A stretch of DNA of 64,000 nt. Origin: an uncultured Holophagae bacterium. Lineage in GTDB: Bacteria; Acidobacteriota; Thermoanaerobaculia; Thermoanaerobaculales; Sulfomarinibacteraceae. The DNA lies in the NCBI GenBank assembly GCA_963710645.1, contig CAVQBD010000002.1, positions 74,828-138,827 on the forward strand. The letters are read 5' to 3'. Position 1 is the first letter of the stretch; every line of letters begins with the position of its first letter. Shown piece after piece: positions 9,283 through 64,000 of this stretch. The position numbers and the translations under genes were made by a program. The notes under the pieces were generated by a model. That model had not been told where the DNA came from, did no database searches, and worked only from the letters and a program-made list of their open reading frames with translations.

Positions 9283-11238
9283 TTAGTCCGGCCGAAGCGT
9301 TCCTGCACTTGGCATCAGGCGGATCGACCAAGAACCTCGGTTTCCGAAATCGAACCCGTCGGAGAAGAGGACCGGCCCTGGTGTTGGGGTTGCCGTCGGG
9401 GTCGCCGTGGGCGTGGGTGTCGACGTCGGTGGAACGGCCGTCCAACTGGGGGTTGGTGTAGGTGATGGCGGCACCGGCGTGCTTGTCCTGGTTGGAGTAG
9501 CCGTTGGTGGAACTGGAGTATTGGTTTGTGTCCTGGTGGCCGTCGGGGTTCGAGTCGGTGTCGGAGAAACCGGCGTGCCTGTGGAAGTTCGGGTTGGAGT
9601 TGGTGGAACCGGTGTGGCGGAGGGAGTTCGGGTTGGAGTTGGTGGAACCGGCGTGGCGGAGGGAGTCCGAGTTGGTGTGGGAGGAACCGGTGTGGCGGAG
9701 GGAGTCCGAGTTGGTGTGGGAGGAGCCGGCGTGGCGGAGGGAGTCCGAGTTGGTGTGGGAGGAACCGGTGTAGCGGAGGGAGTCCGAGTTGGTGTGGGAG
9801 GAACCGGTGTGGCGGAGGGAGTCCGAGTTGGTGTGGGAGGAACCGGCGTGGCGGAGGGAGTCCGAGTTGGAGTTGAGGTCGGTGTTGGCGGAACAGGGGT
9901 ATTTGTTCTGGTGGGCGTCGGGGTCGGTGGAACGGCGGTCGCCGTGGGTGTGGGTGTCGGCACCGGTCCGCTGGCTACTGTGAGGTCCAACTCATAAAGT
10001 TGCGGCATGTCTGACGTGCCGCCTGCAATTTCGAGGTAGTAGGTTCCGTCGCCGCTGGTCAGGGCGATATTCTCGAGGGTTTCAGGGAGTCCCGCGCCGG
10101 TCGCGTCGGAGGACGCCAACTCGGTGGACCCGTTGACATCCAGCACCCGAATACTCAGATCATGGATGGCCAGGGAATCGAAGGGAGTGCCCGAGGAGCA
10201 ACTCCCGCCGGAGTTCTGAGGGCCGCTCAGATAGGTCCCGCCGACAGGGGAGACGGTCACACTGATCGACGCTCCCGAACCGACTGAGAAGCTGAAATCA
10301 TCGATGTCATAGTTGTCATCGATGGACACGTCAAGAATGGCCATCGATCCTGACGGCGATCCGATATGAGTTGATGACGCGGGCGAGTCATTGTGTTCGA
10401 AGAAGTCACCGTAGCCGCGATTCGCGGCCAGGATGTCGTCGTGCTGTGGGCCCTCGAAAGCACCTGAATAGTACGGCTCCATGAGTTTGGTCTGGTTCAC
10501 CGGACAGACGTGCTGCAGACCGATCCCGTGGCCGTGCTCGTGGGAGACCACGTTGCGCAGGCGGATCGAGTTTCCGGAGGTGTTCGAGAAGAAGGAGTCC
10601 CCGGTGTCGATCACCATGTCTCCGATGTTTGGATAAAAGTTGTAGGCGAGGATGCCTGATCCGCCGTCGATGTTGTGACCCGAAATTCGAACGTCGCCGC
10701 GGCCCCCGATCTGGCCCTCGGCGGCGGTGAACGACGCGCCGTCGTCATTCGGCTCGTAGACGTAGGTGATACCCGTGAGTTCCCCCCAACGGTCAAAGAC
10801 CTGCTGGAAAAGGGGGAGCCAATTGGCTTCGTTGCCATAGACGCCGTCTAGGTAGGCACGAAGGTTGCTCGGGGAGTCGGCCTCACCGGCGTAACCCAAG
10901 ATGATGGTGCCGTCGGGAACGATGCTCCAGGTCAGGGTCGTCGGATCGCCCTGGCCGAGGCCGCTGCCGTCGGTTGCAGTCTGAGACCATCGGAGGTAAT
11001 CGGAGAACTGATACTCGGTCTCGGACCCTCCGGACAGGGAGTGATCGAAGCGCGTGAACGACGCCTTTGTGACGGTCTCCTGGATATACCAATCGGGCGT
11101 GCCTGGTTTGAAGCAGAGCACTGGCCCGGAGCCCTGGTTGCAGGCGGCCGGCGATGAGCCGTGCGCGCTCGACGACATGCTGGACAGAAGTGCGATGCAC
11201 CCGATGGTCCCTGCGATGACTGCAAGATTGATCTTCAT
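9283..11238 (-). CDS. Secreted zinc metalloprotease (HExxHxxGxxH, matrixin/M10-like) with a long P/T-rich repeat linker and a short C-terminal motif
   Basis: Signal peptide, zinc site [14 protein letters not shown], a beta-rich domain, then about 190 aa of PT-rich linker that includes about 7 units of [13 protein letters not shown]. Ends in [16 protein letters not shown]. Confidence 0.75.
9583..9890 (-). repeat. 39-bp (13-codon) in-frame tandem repeat inside the protease gene
   Basis: Near-identical units GGGAGTCCGAGTTGGTGTGGGAGGAACCGGTGTGGCGGA start at 9661, 9700, 9739, 9778 and 9817. More diverged units flank them. Confidence 0.9.
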
Positions 11239-15191: not shown

Positions 15192-15363
15192 GGTCTTGGG
15201 GTCTCGAGGTCCTGTGGCCAGACCCCGAGACCTGTTGTTGAAGAAATTCGGAATTCGAAATTCGGAATTCGAAAACCCTCCCACCCGTGTGTGAACAAGG
15301 AATATGGAGCACCGCCGCCCACCCGGGATAGGGAGTCGTTACACGTTCAACGTTAAACGTTAG

Positions 15364-16289
15364 GTTCATCCGGGGAATCGTGAGGTGGGGTTTCTGCGTG
15401 CCCGTCTCCGTGCGGGGATTCAGGCGGCAGGGGCAGCGACGGCAATCAGGGACAGCGTCCGTGATCGGCGGCTGCGTCAGCGATCAGGGGCCGCGGCAGT
15501 GATCAGCTGGGATTGCTCCGGGTTGCGGTCGCTGTCCACCGATACTGCCATCTGCCCCGGACGCCGGTTGCTGTCCCTGTCCCGGCCGCTGCCGACTGCC
15601 GCTGATAGCTGTTCCTCAGAGCGCATCGTGATCACCTCCGGGTCGTTCGCTCGGAGGGAATCGTCGATCTGTCTCCGGATGTCAAGGGCAAGACAAGTCG
15701 TCGGACGACCCTTGACATCCGGAGAAAGATCGACGTCGAGAGAGTTTCATGGACGACCCGGAGGTGATCATGATCGACGCGTGCCAAGGCAACCAACTCA
15801 TCGTCTACGGCAAGGCCATCGAGGCGGCCGGGGAAGCCATCTCCCTCGTCAAACGAGTGCCGGCTCCCGTCAAGAGCCTCGCCGATCAGGTGATCAGATC
15901 GGCGTCATCGGTTCCCGCCAACATTGCAGAAGGCCACGGCCGAACGGGCCGGGATAGACTCCATCATTGGCGAATCGCCTACGGCTCCGCGAAGGAGGTC
16001 GATTGCCATCTTCGCCTCCTGGTTCATGCTGGGGCGATAGACTCCACTCGCGTGGGCGATTCGCTACAGCTCTTCGATCAGGTCCGTGCCATGATCTGGC
16101 GTTTGCTGAACCCAAGGCCCTGATTGGGGCTCCTCGCACGAGCAATTCCGGATGCTGGCGCCGGGTCTACCGCTGGTAGGCTCCGGAACCGCACATGACG
16201 TCGGTGCGATGGAACATCTCGAATATCACATTTCTCATTTCTCATTTCAAATTCAACCACTGCCCATCTCACGGAAATCCGGATGAACC
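15364..16289 (+). repeat. About 0.93-kb unit bounded by imperfect 27-bp inverted repeats
   Basis: Left end GGTTCATCCGGGGAATCGTGAGGTGGG (15364-15390). Right end CCCATCTCACGGAAATCCGGATGAACC (16263-16289), which is its imperfect reverse complement. ACGTT-type short repeats lie just outside both ends. The unit contains module A, nested hairpins and the four-helix-bundle ORF. Module A (15382-15662) is homologous to 52621-52835 and, inverted, to 63645-63891. Confidence 0.8.
15749..16123 (+). CDS. Four-helix-bundle protein (23S rRNA intervening-sequence protein family; same fold family as DGR Avd)
   Basis: 124 aa with family-typical segments (IRSASSVPANIAEGHGR ... AYGSAKEVDCHLRL). The family assignment is from memory of this family's conserved NIAEG and E..yhL pattern. 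Confidence 0.75.
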   Translation: MDDPEVIMIDACQGNQLIVYGKAIEAAGEAISLVKRVPAPVKSLADQVIRSASSVPANIAEGHGRTGRDRLHHWRIAYGSAKEVDCHLRLLVHAGAIDSTRVGDSLQLFDQVRAMIWRLLNPRP

Positions 16290-16496
16290 AAACGTTAAAG
16301 GTCCGGACATCTCGACGTCTGATGAGGACCCCTAATATTAACGTGTAACGTTCAACGTTGAACTTCGCCGAGTCCCGAGTCCCGAGTCCCGGGTTCGGTG
16401 CTGATGTTCGGGACGGGCTGGGGGGGTCGACATTCGACATTCGACATTACCTTTCGACCGGCTGGGCTGGCGGGCTACCGCCCACCGCCTGCTACC

Positions 16497-22111: not shown

Positions 22112-22188
22112 GGGAGGTTAGCTCAGCTGGTTAGAGCACCTGCCTTACACGCAGGGGGTCGTGGGTTCGAATCCCCCACCTCCCACCA
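22112..22188 (+). tRNA. tRNA-Val (anticodon TAC)
   Basis: Cloverleaf folded by hand. Acceptor GGGAGGT/ACCTCCC, anticodon arm CCTGC-CTTACAC-GCAGG, T-loop TTCGAAT, encoded CCA. Confidence 0.9.
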
Positions 22189-22212
22189 TCTAACCGAGAG
22201 CCATACGACTGC

Positions 22213-22289
22213 GGGGTCGTAGTTCAGTTGGTTAGAACGCAGGCCTGTCACGCCTGAGGTCGCGAGTTCGAGTCTCGTCGGCCCCGCCA
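22213..22289 (+). tRNA. tRNA-Asp (anticodon GTC)
   Basis: Acceptor GGGGTCG/CGGCCCC, anticodon arm CAGGC-CTGTCAC-GCCTG, T-loop TTCGAGT, discriminator G, encoded CCA. Confidence 0.9.
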
Positions 22290-29701: not shown

Positions 29702-30030
29702 CCCCCGCCCGCCCGATCCAAGATGCAAGATTCCCCGCCCGGCCGGAACATCAGCTCGGGACTCGGGACTCGGGACTCGGGCCCCGTCCCAGCCGGATAC
29801 GAGATGCGAGATCCGAGATACATGATCCCGCGCCCACCCGGAGAGGGATAAGCGCGATGGGCGGGCGTGCCAGGGGTGGCTCCCTCGGGGAGCGCGGTTG
29901 GGAGATGGGCGCGTCGGAGTCAGCAATTCGAAGCGAACGCGCGGGTCGGTGCCCGGCGCCGACTCGCACCTGCCACACCCTCTACACTTTCTACACCCTC
30001 TCCACCGGGCGCGCGGGTGTGGGGGATAAT
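29702..30030 (-). repeat. Mosaic intergenic repeat copy lacking the hairpin
   Basis: Heptamer tracts (CGGGACT)x4 around 29755-29785 and (CGAGATN)x3 around 29797-29820. C-box 29824-29841. Module C (reverse complement) 29852-29871 directly abuts module B (reverse complement) 29883-29912. GTGTAGA-type repeats around 29975-30005. Confidence 0.8.
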
Positions 30031-44419: not shown

Positions 44420-45911
44420 TCTGCTCCAACTCGCGGAGCTCGCCCTGGCCGGTCATGTCAGTCCACAGCTCGTCGAGGATCTTCTGAGGGCGGTGGTTGA
44501 AGACTCCGGCTCGAGAGCCGGGGTGTTCCGCCGGGCGGATGAAGTTGAGGCGCGGTGGCCGAGGACAGTGTCGGCCCAGGTGGAAGAGGCCACCGACGGG
44601 TGGACCGAGGTGCCCTTCGGATCTGACCACGGCGCGTGGTGTCTTCGGCTATTGCAGCCGGAGCGACTCGACGAAGGGGTGCTCGGCGCCGCCCGAATTG
44701 TGCTGCGCTCCATGGCCCTCAGGGACGAACTCAAGCGGACACGCTTTGATGAGCGGTTCCACCTCTGGGAGCTGGAGACCATTCGCTCCATCGCCTCGGA
44801 CATCGGCGGCATCCTCGAGGTTTCCGGGATTTCCCAGGAGCTCATCAACCACCTGGTGGCCCTGCTGGGCGTTCGCTCGGCCCAAATCTACCTCGGTGTT
44901 GACGCCGATCAGGCGGAGATCACCGGGGGGTTCGGGCCCGAGGTGCTGGATTCGGGTCAGCAGGCACACGCCTGGCGGCAGGGTCTCTACTCCGACGACG
45001 TGGTAGCTCTGCCTCTTCAGTCGGAGAAGGGAACTCTCGGAATCCTGGTGGCGGCGCACAAGGAGGCTCGGGCTGGGACCGAGGCCTTCGCCGGCAACGA
45101 TGTCCGGCTCTTGGAGCTCTTCGCCATCCAGGTCACCATGGCCCTGGATTTCGCTCGGCTGACGCAGGAGTCCCTCGAGAGGGAGCGCCTGAGGCGCGAA
45201 CTCGAGGTGGCGGCCGAGATCCAGTCCCACCTCTACCCGCAGGAATTTCCTCAGTTCGAGGGTTTCAGGCTGGCGGCCAGGTCTCTGCCGAGCCGGCACG
45301 TGGCTGGAGACACCTACGATGTTCTGTTGGACAGGGGCCATCTCATTGCCACGGTCACCGATGTGTCGGGTAAGGGCGTCGGGGCGGGCATGATCGCTGC
45401 CGGAATCCACTCCGCTGTGCGGCTGCTGTCGGAAACCGAGGGGTCGCTCGACGGACTGGCAATGCGGATCAATACCTACCTGGCAGGAGCCACTGAGGAC
45501 AACCGGTTTGCCACCTTTGCCATGGTCCGCTTGGCTCCCGACGGTCGTCTGACGGCGGTGAACGCCGGCCACTGCCCGGTGTTGATCAGGAGACGGGACG
45601 GCACCATTGAACAGATCCAGTCCAGCGGCCTGCCGCTGGGAATTTTGGAAGCCGCCCGGTACACCCAGTCGGTCAGCCAGCTCGATCCCGGCGATCTGCT
45701 GCTGCTTTATACCGATGGTCTCACCGAGGCGGAGAACCCTGCGGAAGAGGAGTTCGGAGTCCCTCGAGTGGAGCAGGCGGTGGCGGTCTTGGACGATCCC
45801 ACTGCCGAGTCTTCCTGCGGCGATCTCATGCGCGCGGTGAATGAGTTTGCCTGCGGCAAGCCGCTGGTTGATGACGCGACGCTGCTCGTTGTTGAACGTC
45901 TTTCCGAGTAG
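44406..45911 (+). CDS. GAF + PP2C (SpoIIE/RsbU-like) serine phosphatase
   Basis: GAF region followed by PP2C motifs (VAGDTYDV ... VTDVSGKGVGAG ... LLLYTDGLTEA ... DDATLLVVER). Overlaps the end of the STAS gene by 14 nt. Confidence 0.8.
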   Translation: MPRGDLLQLAELALAGHVSPQLVEDLLRAVVEDSGSRAGVFRRADEVEARWPRTVSAQVEEATDGWTEVPFGSDHGAWCLRLLQPERLDEGVLGAARIVLRSMALRDELKRTRFDERFHLWELETIRSIASDIGGILEVSGISQELINHLVALLGVRSAQIYLGVDADQAEITGGFGPEVLDSGQQAHAWRQGLYSDDVVALPLQSEKGTLGILVAAHKEARAGTEAFAGNDVRLLELFAIQVTMALDFARLTQESLERERLRRELEVAAEIQSHLYPQEFPQFEGFRLAARSLPSRHVAGDTYDVLLDRGHLIATVTDVSGKGVGAGMIAAGIHSAVRLLSETEGSLDGLAMRINTYLAGATEDNRFATFAMVRLAPDGRLTAVNAGHCPVLIRRRDGTIEQIQSSGLPLGILEAARYTQSVSQLDPGDLLLLYTDGLTEAENPAEEEFGVPRVEQAVAVLDDPTAESSCGDLMRAVNEFACGKPLVDDATLLVVERLSE

Positions 45912-45917
45912 TAACAA

Positions 45918-46047
45918 GCGAATAGTAAATAGTAAATAGTGAATAGTAAATAGTGAATAGTGAATAGTGAATAGTGAATAGTCCCCCTCCCGCCCACCAC
46001 GATCGTGGGGAGCACTTACTATTCGCTATTCACTATTCGCTATTCAC
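45918..46047. repeat. Heptamer microsatellite hairpin between convergent genes
   Basis: (RAATAGT)x9 at 45918-45982 faces (ACTATTC)x4 at 46016-46047, with about 28 of 30 positions paired. The loop carries CCCCCTCCCGCCCACC and the 12-bp palindrome CCACGATCGTGG. Confidence 0.9.
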
Positions 46048-46073
46048 TTTGCGGGCTACAGCCCGAACAGACC

Positions 46074-48718: not shown

Positions 48719-48861
<143 letters not shown>

Positions 48862-52384: not shown

Positions 52385-53146
52385 CGAAATTCGATGTCCC
52401 CCAACCCACCCATGAGTCCAATGTCCAAAGTCGAAAGTCGAAAGTCGCCATCACCCACCCGACACGGCTGGGGCTTTGCTCTCGGGGCCCCTTGTCGATA
52501 CCAGGTGCCGCCACGGACACTGCAATCTCGCTGGGTTCAATCTACCGAATTTCGAAGCGCCGATTCTCCGACCGCGCTCCCCGTGAGGATGGGAAGGAAC
52601 TTTCAACGTTTGGTTCATCCGGGAAAGCGTGAGGTGGGGTTTCTGCGTGCCCGTCTCCGTGTGCGAAACAGCGACGGCAATCAGGGACAGCGTCCATGAT
52701 CGGCGGCTGCGTCAGCGATCGGGGGCCGCGGCAGTGATCAGCGGCGATTGCCCCGGATTGCGGTCGCTGTTCACCGATGCTGCCATCTGTCCCGGACACC
52801 GGTTGCTGTCCCTGCCCCGGCCGCTGCCGACTGCCCGTGACGCGGATTGCTGGCGCGGACGCTGACGCCGGAATCCGGGCCCCCGCGTTCGCTTCGATGC
52901 ACTGACTTCGACGCGCCCATCTTCCAACCGCGCTCCCCGAGGTTGCCCCCTTTAACATTGTTGGGACCTCAACGAGGTGGATTTCTCAATGCCTTGAATC
53001 CCAACAATGTTAAAGACGGCACGCCCGGTCAACGCGCCCTCCCCGCCACCGGGTGGGCGGGTGGCAAGGTTCAACGTTTAACGTGCAACTCTCATCAACG
53101 GCACGCCCGCCTATCGCGCCCCCGTTCCGGGCGGGTTGGTGGGTGC
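52385..53146 (+). repeat. Largest mosaic intergenic repeat array
   Basis: In order: (AGTCGAA)x3 around 52430-52450; left-end motif GGTTCATCC at 52612; module A 52621-52835; module B 52913-52942; 16-bp perfect hairpin 52951-52966/52999-53014; module C 53018-53038; G-box 53049-53064; a second module C 53100-53120; a second G-box 53128-53146. Confidence 0.85.
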
Positions 53147-63542: not shown

Positions 63543-64000
63543 ACGTATGAGGTATGAGGTATGGAGGGTGGAAGGCGAGTACAGACGGTTACAGGTCATT
63601 CGATATTCGAAAATTCCATCGCACCGGCCTCGTGTGCATTTTTGGATTCCCTCCCAGCGAACGACCCGGAGGTGATCACGACGCGCTCCCAGGTACAGCG
63701 ATCAGCGGCAGTCGGCAGCGGCCGGAACAGGGACAGCGACCGGTGTCCGGGGCAGATGGCGGCATCGGTGATGGGCGACCGCAATCCGGGGCAATCCCAG
63801 CTGATCACCGCCGCGGCCCCTGACTGCTGCCTCTGATTGCTGTTCCCGGCCGCTGTCCCTGAACGCCATCGCCGCCGCTGCCATTCGGGCACGGGCGTTC
63901 GCCTCGATTCGTTGACTGAGACGCGCCCATCTCCCAACCGCGCTCCCCGAGGGAGCCCCCCTTAACATCGCTGGGACCTCAATGAGGTAGATTCCCCAAT
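63543..64000. repeat. Mosaic repeat copy truncated by the window end
   Basis: (GAGGTAT)x3 at 63545-63565. Module A in reverse orientation (63645-63891). Module B forward (63923-63952). Left hairpin arm TTAACATCGCTGGGA at about 63962-63976; the right arm is beyond the window. Confidence 0.8.

Follow-up and report, generated by a model that had tools for sequence, protein, structure and literature searches.

Intervening sequences (IVSs) in 23S rRNA genes, such as those of Leptospira and Coxiella burnetii, encode proteins of the four-helix-bundle family PF05635. The Coxiella IVS is a 428-nt selfish element located in helix 45, where it is closed by a 28-bp terminal stem that is cut by RNase III and carries a variable number of tandem GACAGAT heptamers 5′ of the open reading frame (ORF) for the protein S23p (PMC4990558). 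This protein is not detectably made, and the hypothesis that the IVS is a mobile element is debated (PMC4990558). Other family members are found within cas loci (PMC3936711; PMC10910872) and in 16S and 23S insertions of Candidate Phyla Radiation (CPR) bacteria (PMC11270868), and the Avd protein of diversity-generating retroelements (DGRs) is a homologue from the same CDD superfamily (PMC10053308). Here, we describe a gene of the rRNA-IVS family that lies outside rRNA but within an IVS-like shell of repeats. This gene is present in a 64,000-nucleotide stretch of DNA from an uncultured Holophagae bacterium (hereafter called the window), and about 90 relatives of the locus were recovered. To our knowledge, the proteins encoded by IVSs have been recognized since 1993 and are still without a function.

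The gene is the core of a cassette that extends from about 125 nt 5′ of the ATG through the stop codon and that opens with a nested palindrome of about 150 nt. We give an even chance to the reading that the locus is one copy of a multi-copy, IVS-type selfish cassette residing outside rRNA, in which fold-back of the leader would occlude translation and RNase III would probably process the folded transcript. Such a cassette offers a tractable handle on IVS elements, in that stem cutting, translation gating, circle excision, and protein binding become matters for experiment. It also hints at how the short tandem arrays in these and cyanobacterial genomes may have arisen, and it would account for four-helix-bundle genes that reside inside cas operons without being cas genes.

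Several characteristics are common to the window element and the rRNA IVSs. In both, an ORF of family PF05635 resides in an element closed by terminal repeats (28 bp in Coxiella versus 40 nt at 78% complementarity in the window), purine-rich tandem repeats are located 5′ of the ORF (GACAGAT heptamers in Coxiella, CAG-type arrays in the window), and related elements exist with and without the ORF. In contrast to the rRNA IVSs, the window element is located outside rRNA and has an additional nested palindrome that appears to bury the start codons. Its cassette also has a carrier with terminal inverted repeats and a candidate flanking duplication, and there are many copies per genome. Furthermore, RNase III cleavage is established in Coxiella, whereas we infer the processing of the leader and terminal stems of the window element by analogy.

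The stand-alone TIGR02436 genes, which include those for Xcc0516 (2GSC), BT_0352 (2RLD), and the members in cas operons, belong to the same family and share the fold and the sequence motif RxxxSxxxNxxE with the window protein. These genes are scattered in intergenic gaps, where inverted short-repeat arrays bracket the gene. Compared to this group, the subfamily found in Thermoanaerobaculia adds an N-terminal extension of eight codons and a covarying leader palindrome.

The four-helix-bundle gene and its leader palindrome

A first-pass annotation of the window, made from the sequence alone, had assigned the ORF embedded in the repeats to the four-helix-bundle family. Profile searches bear this out, because the ORF exceeds the cut-offs of both PF05635 (23S_rRNA_IVP; E value of 6.3e-20, 71.8 bits, cut-off of 33.8) and TIGR02436 (“four helix bundle protein”; E value of 4.6e-20, 71.9 bits, cut-off of 24). 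An AlphaFold2 model of the product as a monomer, built with 33 homologues, has a mean predicted confidence (pLDDT) of 88.2 with helices at residues 16-34, 42-63, 67-93, and 99-120, whereas residues 1-14 are disordered. The nearest solved structures identified by Foldseek are Xcc0516 (2GSC; template modeling [TM] scores of 0.77/0.85, root mean square deviation of 1.5) and then BT_0352 (2RLD). TM scores to these two structures are 0.77-0.85, and Avd (4DWL, 8UB7) ranks behind them with scores of 0.72-0.83 and about 10% identity. Likewise, a sequence search among solved structures matched only 2GSC and 2RLD.

Residues R50, S54, N58, and E61 are invariant across the 33 sequences. These residues make up the core RxxxSxxxNxxE of the family motif GxxRxxxSxxxNxxE (PMC3936711), whose leading G is replaced by Q47 in the window protein. 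By a count from the sequence, the charge of this protein is near neutral (about +1).

A total of 3,727 related proteins were found at an E value of 1e-5 or lower, and the best 120 of these 3,727 are all at least 70% identical to the window protein and mostly exactly 124 amino acids long. At least nine distinct paralogues with at least 92% identity are spread over six large contigs, which presumably belong to a single metagenome-assembled genome (MAG). A genome scan gave 79 related loci from Acidobacteriota MAGs that are labeled Thermoanaerobaculia/Thermoanaerobaculales or Holophagae, apart from a few that carry other labels. The best-sampled genomes among these carry about 9-14 copies per MAG. 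The closest locus (L001; 95% amino acid identity) is from the Holophagae MAG MFD03804.bin.1.68.

When the upstream 130 nt were aligned, the same leader architecture was observed before about 70 of the 79 related loci. It consists, in order, of a left arm, a spacer, a hairpin of about 85 nt (TGTCAAGGG...CCCTTGACA), a G-rich spacer that resembles a Shine-Dalgarno (SD) sequence, and the start of the ORF. The first 22 nt of the ORF recur in reverse complement as the left arm, and the inverted copy spans 22-45 nt. The consensus of the left arm is CATGATCACCTCCnGGTyGTTC, and that of the ORF start is ATGAACrACCnGGAGGTGAyCATG. Within the hairpin, CCCTTGACA is nearly invariant across loci, and the leader has a conserved TTGACA.

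In the window, the arms of the inner hairpin (15662-15688 and 15709-15735) are 27 nt long and 96% complementary, which agrees with the 25-bp-stem hairpin noted in the first pass. The outer inverted repeat that was also noted there is real (15625-15646 and 15753-15774; 22 nt, 95% complementary), but it does not pair a scaffold with an insert, because its left arm is part of the gene's own leader. Homology between the window and distant cassettes extends from about -123 to the stop codon (+372) and no further. Moreover, the hairpin motif occurs 71 times in 1.2 Mb, and about 63 of these 71 occurrences adjoin a four-helix-bundle gene. The presence of the leader at most loci, the limits of the homology, and the near-exclusive pairing of the motif with these genes are the sequence comparisons on which we assign the hairpin and left arm to the gene rather than to a scaffold.

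The leader (15615-15790) is predicted to fold at -107.6 kcal/mol compared to -63.1 kcal/mol for shuffled sequences (z of -11.3), and none of 200 shuffles folds as well. The reverse strand folds equally well. Covariation was computed on 72 distinct sequences and 36 pairs by using 500 shuffles and slid-partner controls. Standard pairs occupy 95.8% of pair cells versus 79.8% in shuffles. Double changes are present at 26 of the 36 pairs and in 402 cells versus 108 cells in shuffles, and none of the 500 shuffles reaches 402. The covariation score is 0.42, whereas slid partners do not exceed 0.089. Compensatory changes are found in 20 of the 21 lower-stem pairs of the inner hairpin. In the outer stem, GC and UA alternate 42:27 at one pair, and UA and CG alternate 42:28 at another.

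On the coding side of the outer stem (right arm), the compensated changes are non-synonymous (N/D, P/Q). Given that residues 1-14 are disordered in the model, these substitutions indicate that the pairing is kept and not the peptide. To judge from these alignments, the leader structure is under selection. At gathering score, the leader matches no family in Rfam 15, and only microRNA hairpin models are hit below threshold. A covarying cis element of about 150 nt that is absent from Rfam is thus newly described here. In a literature search with incomplete coverage, we found no description of the leader palindrome and no link between these genes and inverted arrays outside rRNA.

The conserved pairing involves translation start signals. 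The left arm contains GATCACCTCC, the anti-SD sequence at the 3′ end of 16S rRNA. Its partner in the ORF is the SD sequence of a second ATG, whereas the first ATG is served by a GGAG-type site in the right spacer. GGAGG is found within the first 24 nt of the ORF at 72 of 76 loci, and a CCTCC-like core is found in the left arm at 64 of 76. The outer helix in the window comprises about 32 bp with a bulge when the leader is folded computationally. The predicted fold places both ribosome-binding sites and both start codons inside a perfect helix of at least 22 bp, which extends the earlier proposal that the start codon and ribosome-binding site lie within a nested stem.

The carrier element and copies that lack the cassette

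The terminal repeats of the element (15350-15389 and 16263-16302) are 40 nt long and 78% complementary, consistent with the imperfect terminal inverted repeats previously proposed to bound the unit. As a whole, the unit (15340-16312) is predicted to fold with its terminal repeats paired and its arrays folded back (z of -9.8). The window and L001 share exactly 15360-16292 (-389 to +543 of the ATG) and nothing outside. The ends of the carrier are the terminal repeats GGTTCATCCGGGRAANCGTGAGGTGGGG, which are also present in L001, in two other loci (L038 and L039), and in a truncated copy of the element in the window (copy C, see below). The repeat that flanks the element matches at 8 of 8 positions in the window and at 6-7 of 8 in L001, L038, and L039, but the flanking duplication is not beyond doubt because the element is set in heptamer arrays.

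Where they adjoin the terminal repeats, these arrays (ACGTTCA ACGTTAA ACGTTA, then GGTTCAT...) are similar to the 7 nt with which the terminal repeat begins. Such arrays are located in the window at 15337-15363, 16290-16302, and 16338-16365, in L001 at 9606-9627, and in L038 and L039. It looks as if the tip of the element has been reiterated in the abutting arrays.

Short tandem repeats, including GGGGCAGCGTCC, CAGCGRCAGnnnn, GTGACC, and others, are present 5′ of the left arm at almost every locus. In L039, the layout is symmetric: a terminal repeat, CAG-type arrays, the cassette, CTG-type arrays, and a terminal repeat. The polarity of the arrays is fixed relative to the gene (CAG 699 versus CTG 207; 49 versus 12 loci; P of 2e-6), which argues for a strand-specific role such as RNA. 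A GACAG/GGCAG-like core was seen in the upstream units of the window (15423-15510), L004, L009, L080, L091, and the Coxiella IVS, and such units recur across unrelated hosts (CAGCGACAG, GGTGACAGG, GATGACAGA, GACAGAT). This core could be a shared recognition motif or a coincidence among purine-rich repeats.

By its structure, the carrier is best described as a fold-back, non-autonomous element with no transposase inside, similar to miniature inverted-repeat transposable elements (MITEs). With MITEs and fold-back elements it shares terminal repeats, subterminal arrays, a flanking duplication, dispersed copies, and the lack of a transposase. Unlike MITEs, it carries a conserved protein gene, and no cognate transposase is known.

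Filled and cassette-less siblings coexist in the window (Table 1). The filled element (copy A) matches copy B, which is on the opposite strand, at 89% over 15478-15662 (63645-63829 in B) and at 79% over 16182-16214 (63614-63646 in B). The two flanks from copy A are contiguous in copy B with a 2-nt TC overlap (microhomology). Given that no filler separates them, the insertion-deletion (indel) amounts to 521 bp. The first-pass annotation correctly recognized this difference between the two copies, but its estimates of 528 bp and of a 7-nt filler (ATTTTTG) are replaced by 521 bp and the TC overlap. A search of copy B with the family hidden Markov model found no four-helix-bundle remnant.

The indel is bracketed by an imperfect direct repeat whose two copies, 15638-15662 (CCGGGTCGTTCGCTCGGAGGGAATC) and 16161-16183 (CCGGGTCTACCGCTGGTAGGCTC), match at 15 of 20 positions in register with a spacing of 523. 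Copy B has a single copy of this repeat. A binomial estimate for a fixed register puts the chance of such a match at about 2e-5, an estimate weakened by the location of both repeat copies in array-like sequence. The inner half of the left arm falls within this 25-nt repeat, which fits either excision or integration at that sequence or a slipped deletion. In L001, only CCTC...GGAATC remains at the position of the right repeat copy. Direct repeats of the arm past the gene are an exception rather than the rule: 1 of 70 loci attains a z of at least 4, with hints at L051, L061, L036, and L069.

The left arm is retained in copies A and B and in L001. Because copy B keeps this inverted copy of the 5′ end of the ORF, it descends from a cassette-bearing element or is an exchange site. 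On this sequence evidence, copy B must be a cassette-less derivative or a site of cassette exchange and not a naive target, and the earlier description of it as an empty scaffold does not hold. A second solo arm, from another species (L059:6372), is located between CAG-type and CTG-type arrays. The initial 8 nt of the hairpin (GTAGCCGG) persist next to it, as if the remainder had been deleted. The truncated form seen in copy C is also present at L001:2329. A metagenome scan for the A/B junction sequence returned no match.

Table 1. Coordinates of the element, its parts, and its partial copies in the window
Feature	Position	Strand	Remarks
Left flanking direct repeat AAACGTTA	15355-15362		8 bp; candidate target-site duplication; in AACGTTN heptamer array
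Left terminal inverted repeat GGTTCATCCGGGGAATCGTGAGGTGGGG	15363-15390	+	Of the 927-bp carrier
Fold-back short tandem repeats	15423-15612	+	CAG-type, 19-nt period, 15423-15510; imperfect CTG-type complement, 15540-15612
Left arm of leader palindrome	15621-15650	+	Inverted copy of at least the first 22 nt of the ORF; carries GATCACCTCC
Inner hairpin	15662-15735	+	27-nt arms; conserved TGTCAAGGG...CCCTTGACA; variable apex
Block absent from copy B	15663-16183	+	521 bp; hairpin, gene, and 60-nt tail
Four-helix-bundle protein gene	15749-16123	+	124 aa; PF05635/TIGR02436; Pfam match from residue 16
Right arm of leader palindrome	15753-15774	+	Within the first codons of the ORF
Second SD sequence GGAGGTGATC	15760-15769	+	Partner of GATCACCTCC
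Second ATG (codon 8)	15770	+	5 nt past GGAGGTGATC, a perfect SD sequence
Indel-bracketing direct repeat, right copy	16161-16183	+	75% over 20 nt; left copy at 15638-15662
Right terminal inverted repeat	16263-16289	-	Pairs with left repeat in minimum-energy fold
Right flanking direct repeat AAACGTTA	16290-16297		8 bp
Two tRNA genes	22112-22286		Sole Rfam gathering-score matches in the window
Copy C	52598-52840	+	Left terminal repeat and CAG-type arrays, then an unrelated repeat module; lacks arm and gene
Copy B	63614-63882	-	Arrays, left arm, and right flank; lacks hairpin, gene, and terminal repeats

Possible explanations for the architecture

In the explanation introduced above, any transcript that includes the left arm would fold into a long, perfect helix that sequesters the two ribosome-binding sites together with the two start codons, and the gene would be silent. 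Translation would then require cleavage of this helix by RNase III or another double-strand RNase, in the manner of rRNA IVS stems. Alternatively, transcription that initiates inside the palindrome might release the start region. The long terminal and array helices may let the insert fold away from, or be cut out of, its host transcript, and either outcome would render the insertion harmless. Copy B would be a sibling that lost or exchanged its hairpin-gene block by a 521-bp change between the 25-nt direct repeats.

Translational control of the IS10 transposase gene has a similar basis, in that an upstream segment present in read-through transcripts base-pairs with the ribosome-binding site and thereby blocks translation. 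Likewise, the upstream inverted segment of the window cassette is predicted to pair with the SD sequence and start codon. The two systems differ in that the window stem is perfect and much longer (22-32 bp plus a 27-bp inner hairpin) and is associated with neither a transposase nor a demonstrated internal promoter.

Several observations weigh against this explanation. First, compensation in the leader is nearly all from one Watson-Crick pair to another, with very few G-U intermediates, and a strand test that compared G-U with A-C mismatches gave no clear strand bias (162 versus 131; P of 0.08). Compensation that is limited to Watson-Crick pairs and is strand-neutral fits a DNA hairpin, or folding of both strands, at least as well as RNA. 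Second, a cut within the outer stem could destroy the start region and not free it. Third, no convincing sigma-70 promoter was found in the leader. A promoter built on the conserved TTGACA was rejected because no -10 hexamer follows 16-18 nt on. Fourth, in the window and L001, both arrays lie 5′ of the cassette and do not bracket the gene, and inverted flanks are present at only 14 of 59 Thermoanaerobaculia loci, compared to 18 of 59 with long direct flanks. In these bacteria, the bracket seems to have been superseded functionally by the leader palindrome. Finally, the direction of the A/B indel is not provable with three copies.

The main rival to translational occlusion, which we consider possible though not probable, is that the signals act at the DNA level. 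The palindromes, terminal repeats, and arrays would form hairpins or cruciforms that are recognized by a recombinase or transposase whose gene is at another location, in the style of MITEs, fold-back elements, IS200/IS605-REP systems, or integrons. Under such a scheme, the gene would be cargo or a mobility cofactor, and burial of its start codons would be incidental. The Watson-Crick-only, strand-neutral covariation fits this explanation, as do the terminal repeats, the 8-bp flanking duplication, and the near-identical copies dispersed in the genome whose shared homology ends exactly at the terminal repeats. The 25-nt direct repeat that brackets the indel is likewise what att-type or slipped recombination leaves behind.

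Further support for DNA-level signals comes from pANA02, a plasmid of Anabaena sp. 90 that carries a distant family member. Among 42 genes on this plasmid, inverted flanks were detected for three: the four-helix-bundle gene (z of 13.6) and two IS4 transposase genes (z of about 6). Thus, the only other genes bracketed by inverted repeats are those for transposases.

Against a DNA-level role, however, a conserved neighboring gene for a reverse transcriptase, transposase, or integrase was sought across 80 loci, and none was found. The polarity of the arrays and of the purine/pyrimidine strands is fixed relative to the ORF, whereas symmetric DNA ends need no such polarity, and the arm is specifically an SD/anti-SD pair. 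Furthermore, the filled sites L063 and L064, which are from two species, are orthologous, and this indicates that at least some copies are vertically and stably inherited. An integron attC site is also not a good match, because the arms (GAACRACC and GGTYGTTC) do not fit the cores RYYYAAC and GTTRRRY, and there is no integrase among the neighbors.

We consider it improbable that a 0.5-kb insert composed of the hairpin, ORF, and tail invaded a preexisting repeat scaffold of which copy B is a never-occupied example, as the first-pass annotation had it. The clean indel with its 2-nt microhomology would be expected from such an event, as would the 25-nt imperfect duplication that flanks copy A and is represented once in copy B. 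However, copy B holds the left arm, which is part of the cassette at about 70 other loci and which a naive site could not contain. In addition, the hairpin at the solo arm L059:6372 is cut back to its first 8 nt, as expected after a deletion, and copy B is itself a fragment that lacks both terminal repeats.

Still less probable is a promoter/operator, with TTGACA as a -35 box and with a four-helix-bundle pentamer that binds the hairpin and arrays to regulate its own gene. The near invariance of CCCTTGACA and its location about 30 nt 5′ of the first ATG, a spacing that would suit a transcript beginning with this ATG, are compatible with this arrangement. The arrays are repetitive and polar, and Avd, which has the same fold, resides in a ribonucleoprotein with RNA (8UB7). 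Yet the region has no -10-like hexamer and is instead G-rich and SD-like, and the protein is near neutral. Moreover, the lower stem varies freely with compensation, which points to a folded single strand rather than a duplex operator.

The remaining rival, a DGR remnant in which an Avd gene has been left alone, has a matching fold to recommend it (TM scores of 0.72-0.83 to 4DWL and 8UB7), but it is refuted for practical purposes by the roughly 10% identity to Avd and the closer match to 2GSC and 2RLD, by the housekeeping neighbors and the lack of a reverse transcriptase as a conserved neighbor in the 80 loci, by a repeat comparison of the window that revealed no template/variable repeat pair, and by a genuine DGR avd gene on pANA02 that has no bracketing repeats (z of -1.1).

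Two coding interpretations of the repeats were also discarded. A divergent small ORF on the minus strand, starting from the mirrored SD sequence and ATG, was rejected because the window and L001 differ in frame and copy B has ACG in place of ATG. The array periods of 13 and 19 nt exclude a periodic peptide.

Distant relatives, neighborhood, and other repeats

To extend the comparison, 14 distant plasmid loci with 32-45% identity were examined. Their hosts are Anabaena, Nostoc, Calothrix, Geminocystis, Picosynechococcus, Stanieria, Leptolyngbya, Gemmatirosa, and Azospirillum. The genes occupy tight gaps between cas6 and cas4, between cmr2 and cmr3, or between parA and parB, or they follow a coupling-protein gene. 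Inverted short-repeat arrays bracket the gene in 11-12 of the 14 loci, compared to the 3 of 42 genes on pANA02 taken as a control, as exemplified by (GGGAACA)n...(CTGTTCC)n, (GAGGGCAG)n...(CTCCTGCC)n, and (CAGGAGT)n...(ACTCCTG)n. Array units differ between loci but agree across the two sides of any one locus. On the coding strand, SD-like tetramers outnumber anti-SD-like ones upstream of the gene (94 versus 14), whereas downstream the anti-SD-like tetramers prevail (71 versus 29). The covarying leader palindrome was not seen in the plasmid loci.

These bracketing arrays and the Coxiella parallels strengthen the likeness to rRNA IVSs that was proposed in the first pass, which is limited by the location of the window element outside an rRNA gene. 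The CRISPR association of the four-helix-bundle gene on cyanobacterial plasmids is probably that of a hitch-hiker. In three loci, the gene in a cas6/cas4 or cmr2/cmr3 gap was seen to be flanked by heptamer arrays (L080, which is the pANA02 locus, L086, and L084). A 14-nt unit is repeated 20 times upstream of the four-helix-bundle gene of pANA02.

More speculatively, PF05635 genes and their inverted short-repeat arrays may form one phylum-spanning, IVS-type mobile class that settles in hairpin loops and tight gaps. Its sites would include rRNA helices, cas operons, plasmid partition operons, and the site in the window, and orphan heptamer arrays and the short tandemly repeated repetitive (STRR) sequences of cyanobacteria would perhaps be ORF-less relatives or footprints. 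The pentameric protein would recognize the repeats or hairpin and promote spread or processing. This broader proposal is doubtful at present.

In the window, the element is located between an aldehyde dehydrogenase gene and a response-regulator gene. The products of the neighboring genes are HPPK, aldehyde dehydrogenase, a sigma-54 response regulator, a phosphoribosyltransferase, and an NYN-domain protein. As stated in the first pass, no rRNA gene is nearby: an Rfam scan of the 64-kb window at gathering thresholds identified two tRNAs only. The companion statement that no reverse transcriptase or transposase is nearby also stands for these housekeeping neighbors, and the 64 kb was not screened in full, protein by protein, for reverse transcriptases. 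Exact look-ups of the ORF, of two paralogues (P0005 and P0006), and of the neighboring genes matched no record, and tblastn against phage genomes gave no match. Among the related loci, no neighboring gene of any kind is conserved (80 loci), and the orientation of neighbors is random, with the upstream gene co-oriented at 31 loci and opposed at 34. Dependence on read-through from the upstream gene was therefore rejected.

Some copies appear to have decayed. In a second copy at L039 (12835-13210), the second ATG has become AGT, and L078 (3370-3735) has a premature stop at codon 40. The first ATG has been lost in L036 and L058.

Intergenic DNA of the window is rich in short tandem heptamers with many different units, such as TGCCTAC, which is repeated 20.6 times at 48719-48861. 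Other heptamer sites are at 1409, 2336, 6697, 16229, 16368, 16427, 18456, 19233, 29755, 35941, 41775, 48566, 52415, and 63540. Such arrays are far more numerous than four-helix-bundle genes, which are represented once in the window. They resemble cyanobacterial STRR sequences, and a link between the two is our own suggestion rather than an established relationship. At 45909-46053, an array of (AATAGTG)n is separated by 20-35 nt from an opposing array of its complement. This fold-back contains no ORF but is otherwise arranged like the arrays on either side of four-helix-bundle genes at other loci.

Other repeats are dispersed through the window and its relatives. One family (GGGGAGCGCGGTTGGGAGATGGGCGCG...) is present at 1527-1587, 29874-29945, 52880-52971, and 63892-63981. 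Its members are joined to the scaffold copies in differing orientations, which indicates that the intergenic repeats are modular and shuffled. In other MAGs, a palindromic module (ggggtgccgggyacgscattgtgcc...cgcacaatgscgytaccgggctccc) recurs around cassettes, as does another (aggcaggccgccggcg...cgccgatgg). These two modules are found up- and downstream of the cassette in L004, L016, L025, L036, L041, L051, L055, L061, L063, and L064, and at certain loci they make up direct repeats that flank the cassette on either side and reach about 165 nt in length. Finally, an apparent coding region of the window with strong GC skew (9401-9925) contains nine copies of a repeat with a 39-nt period, which corresponds to 13 codons.

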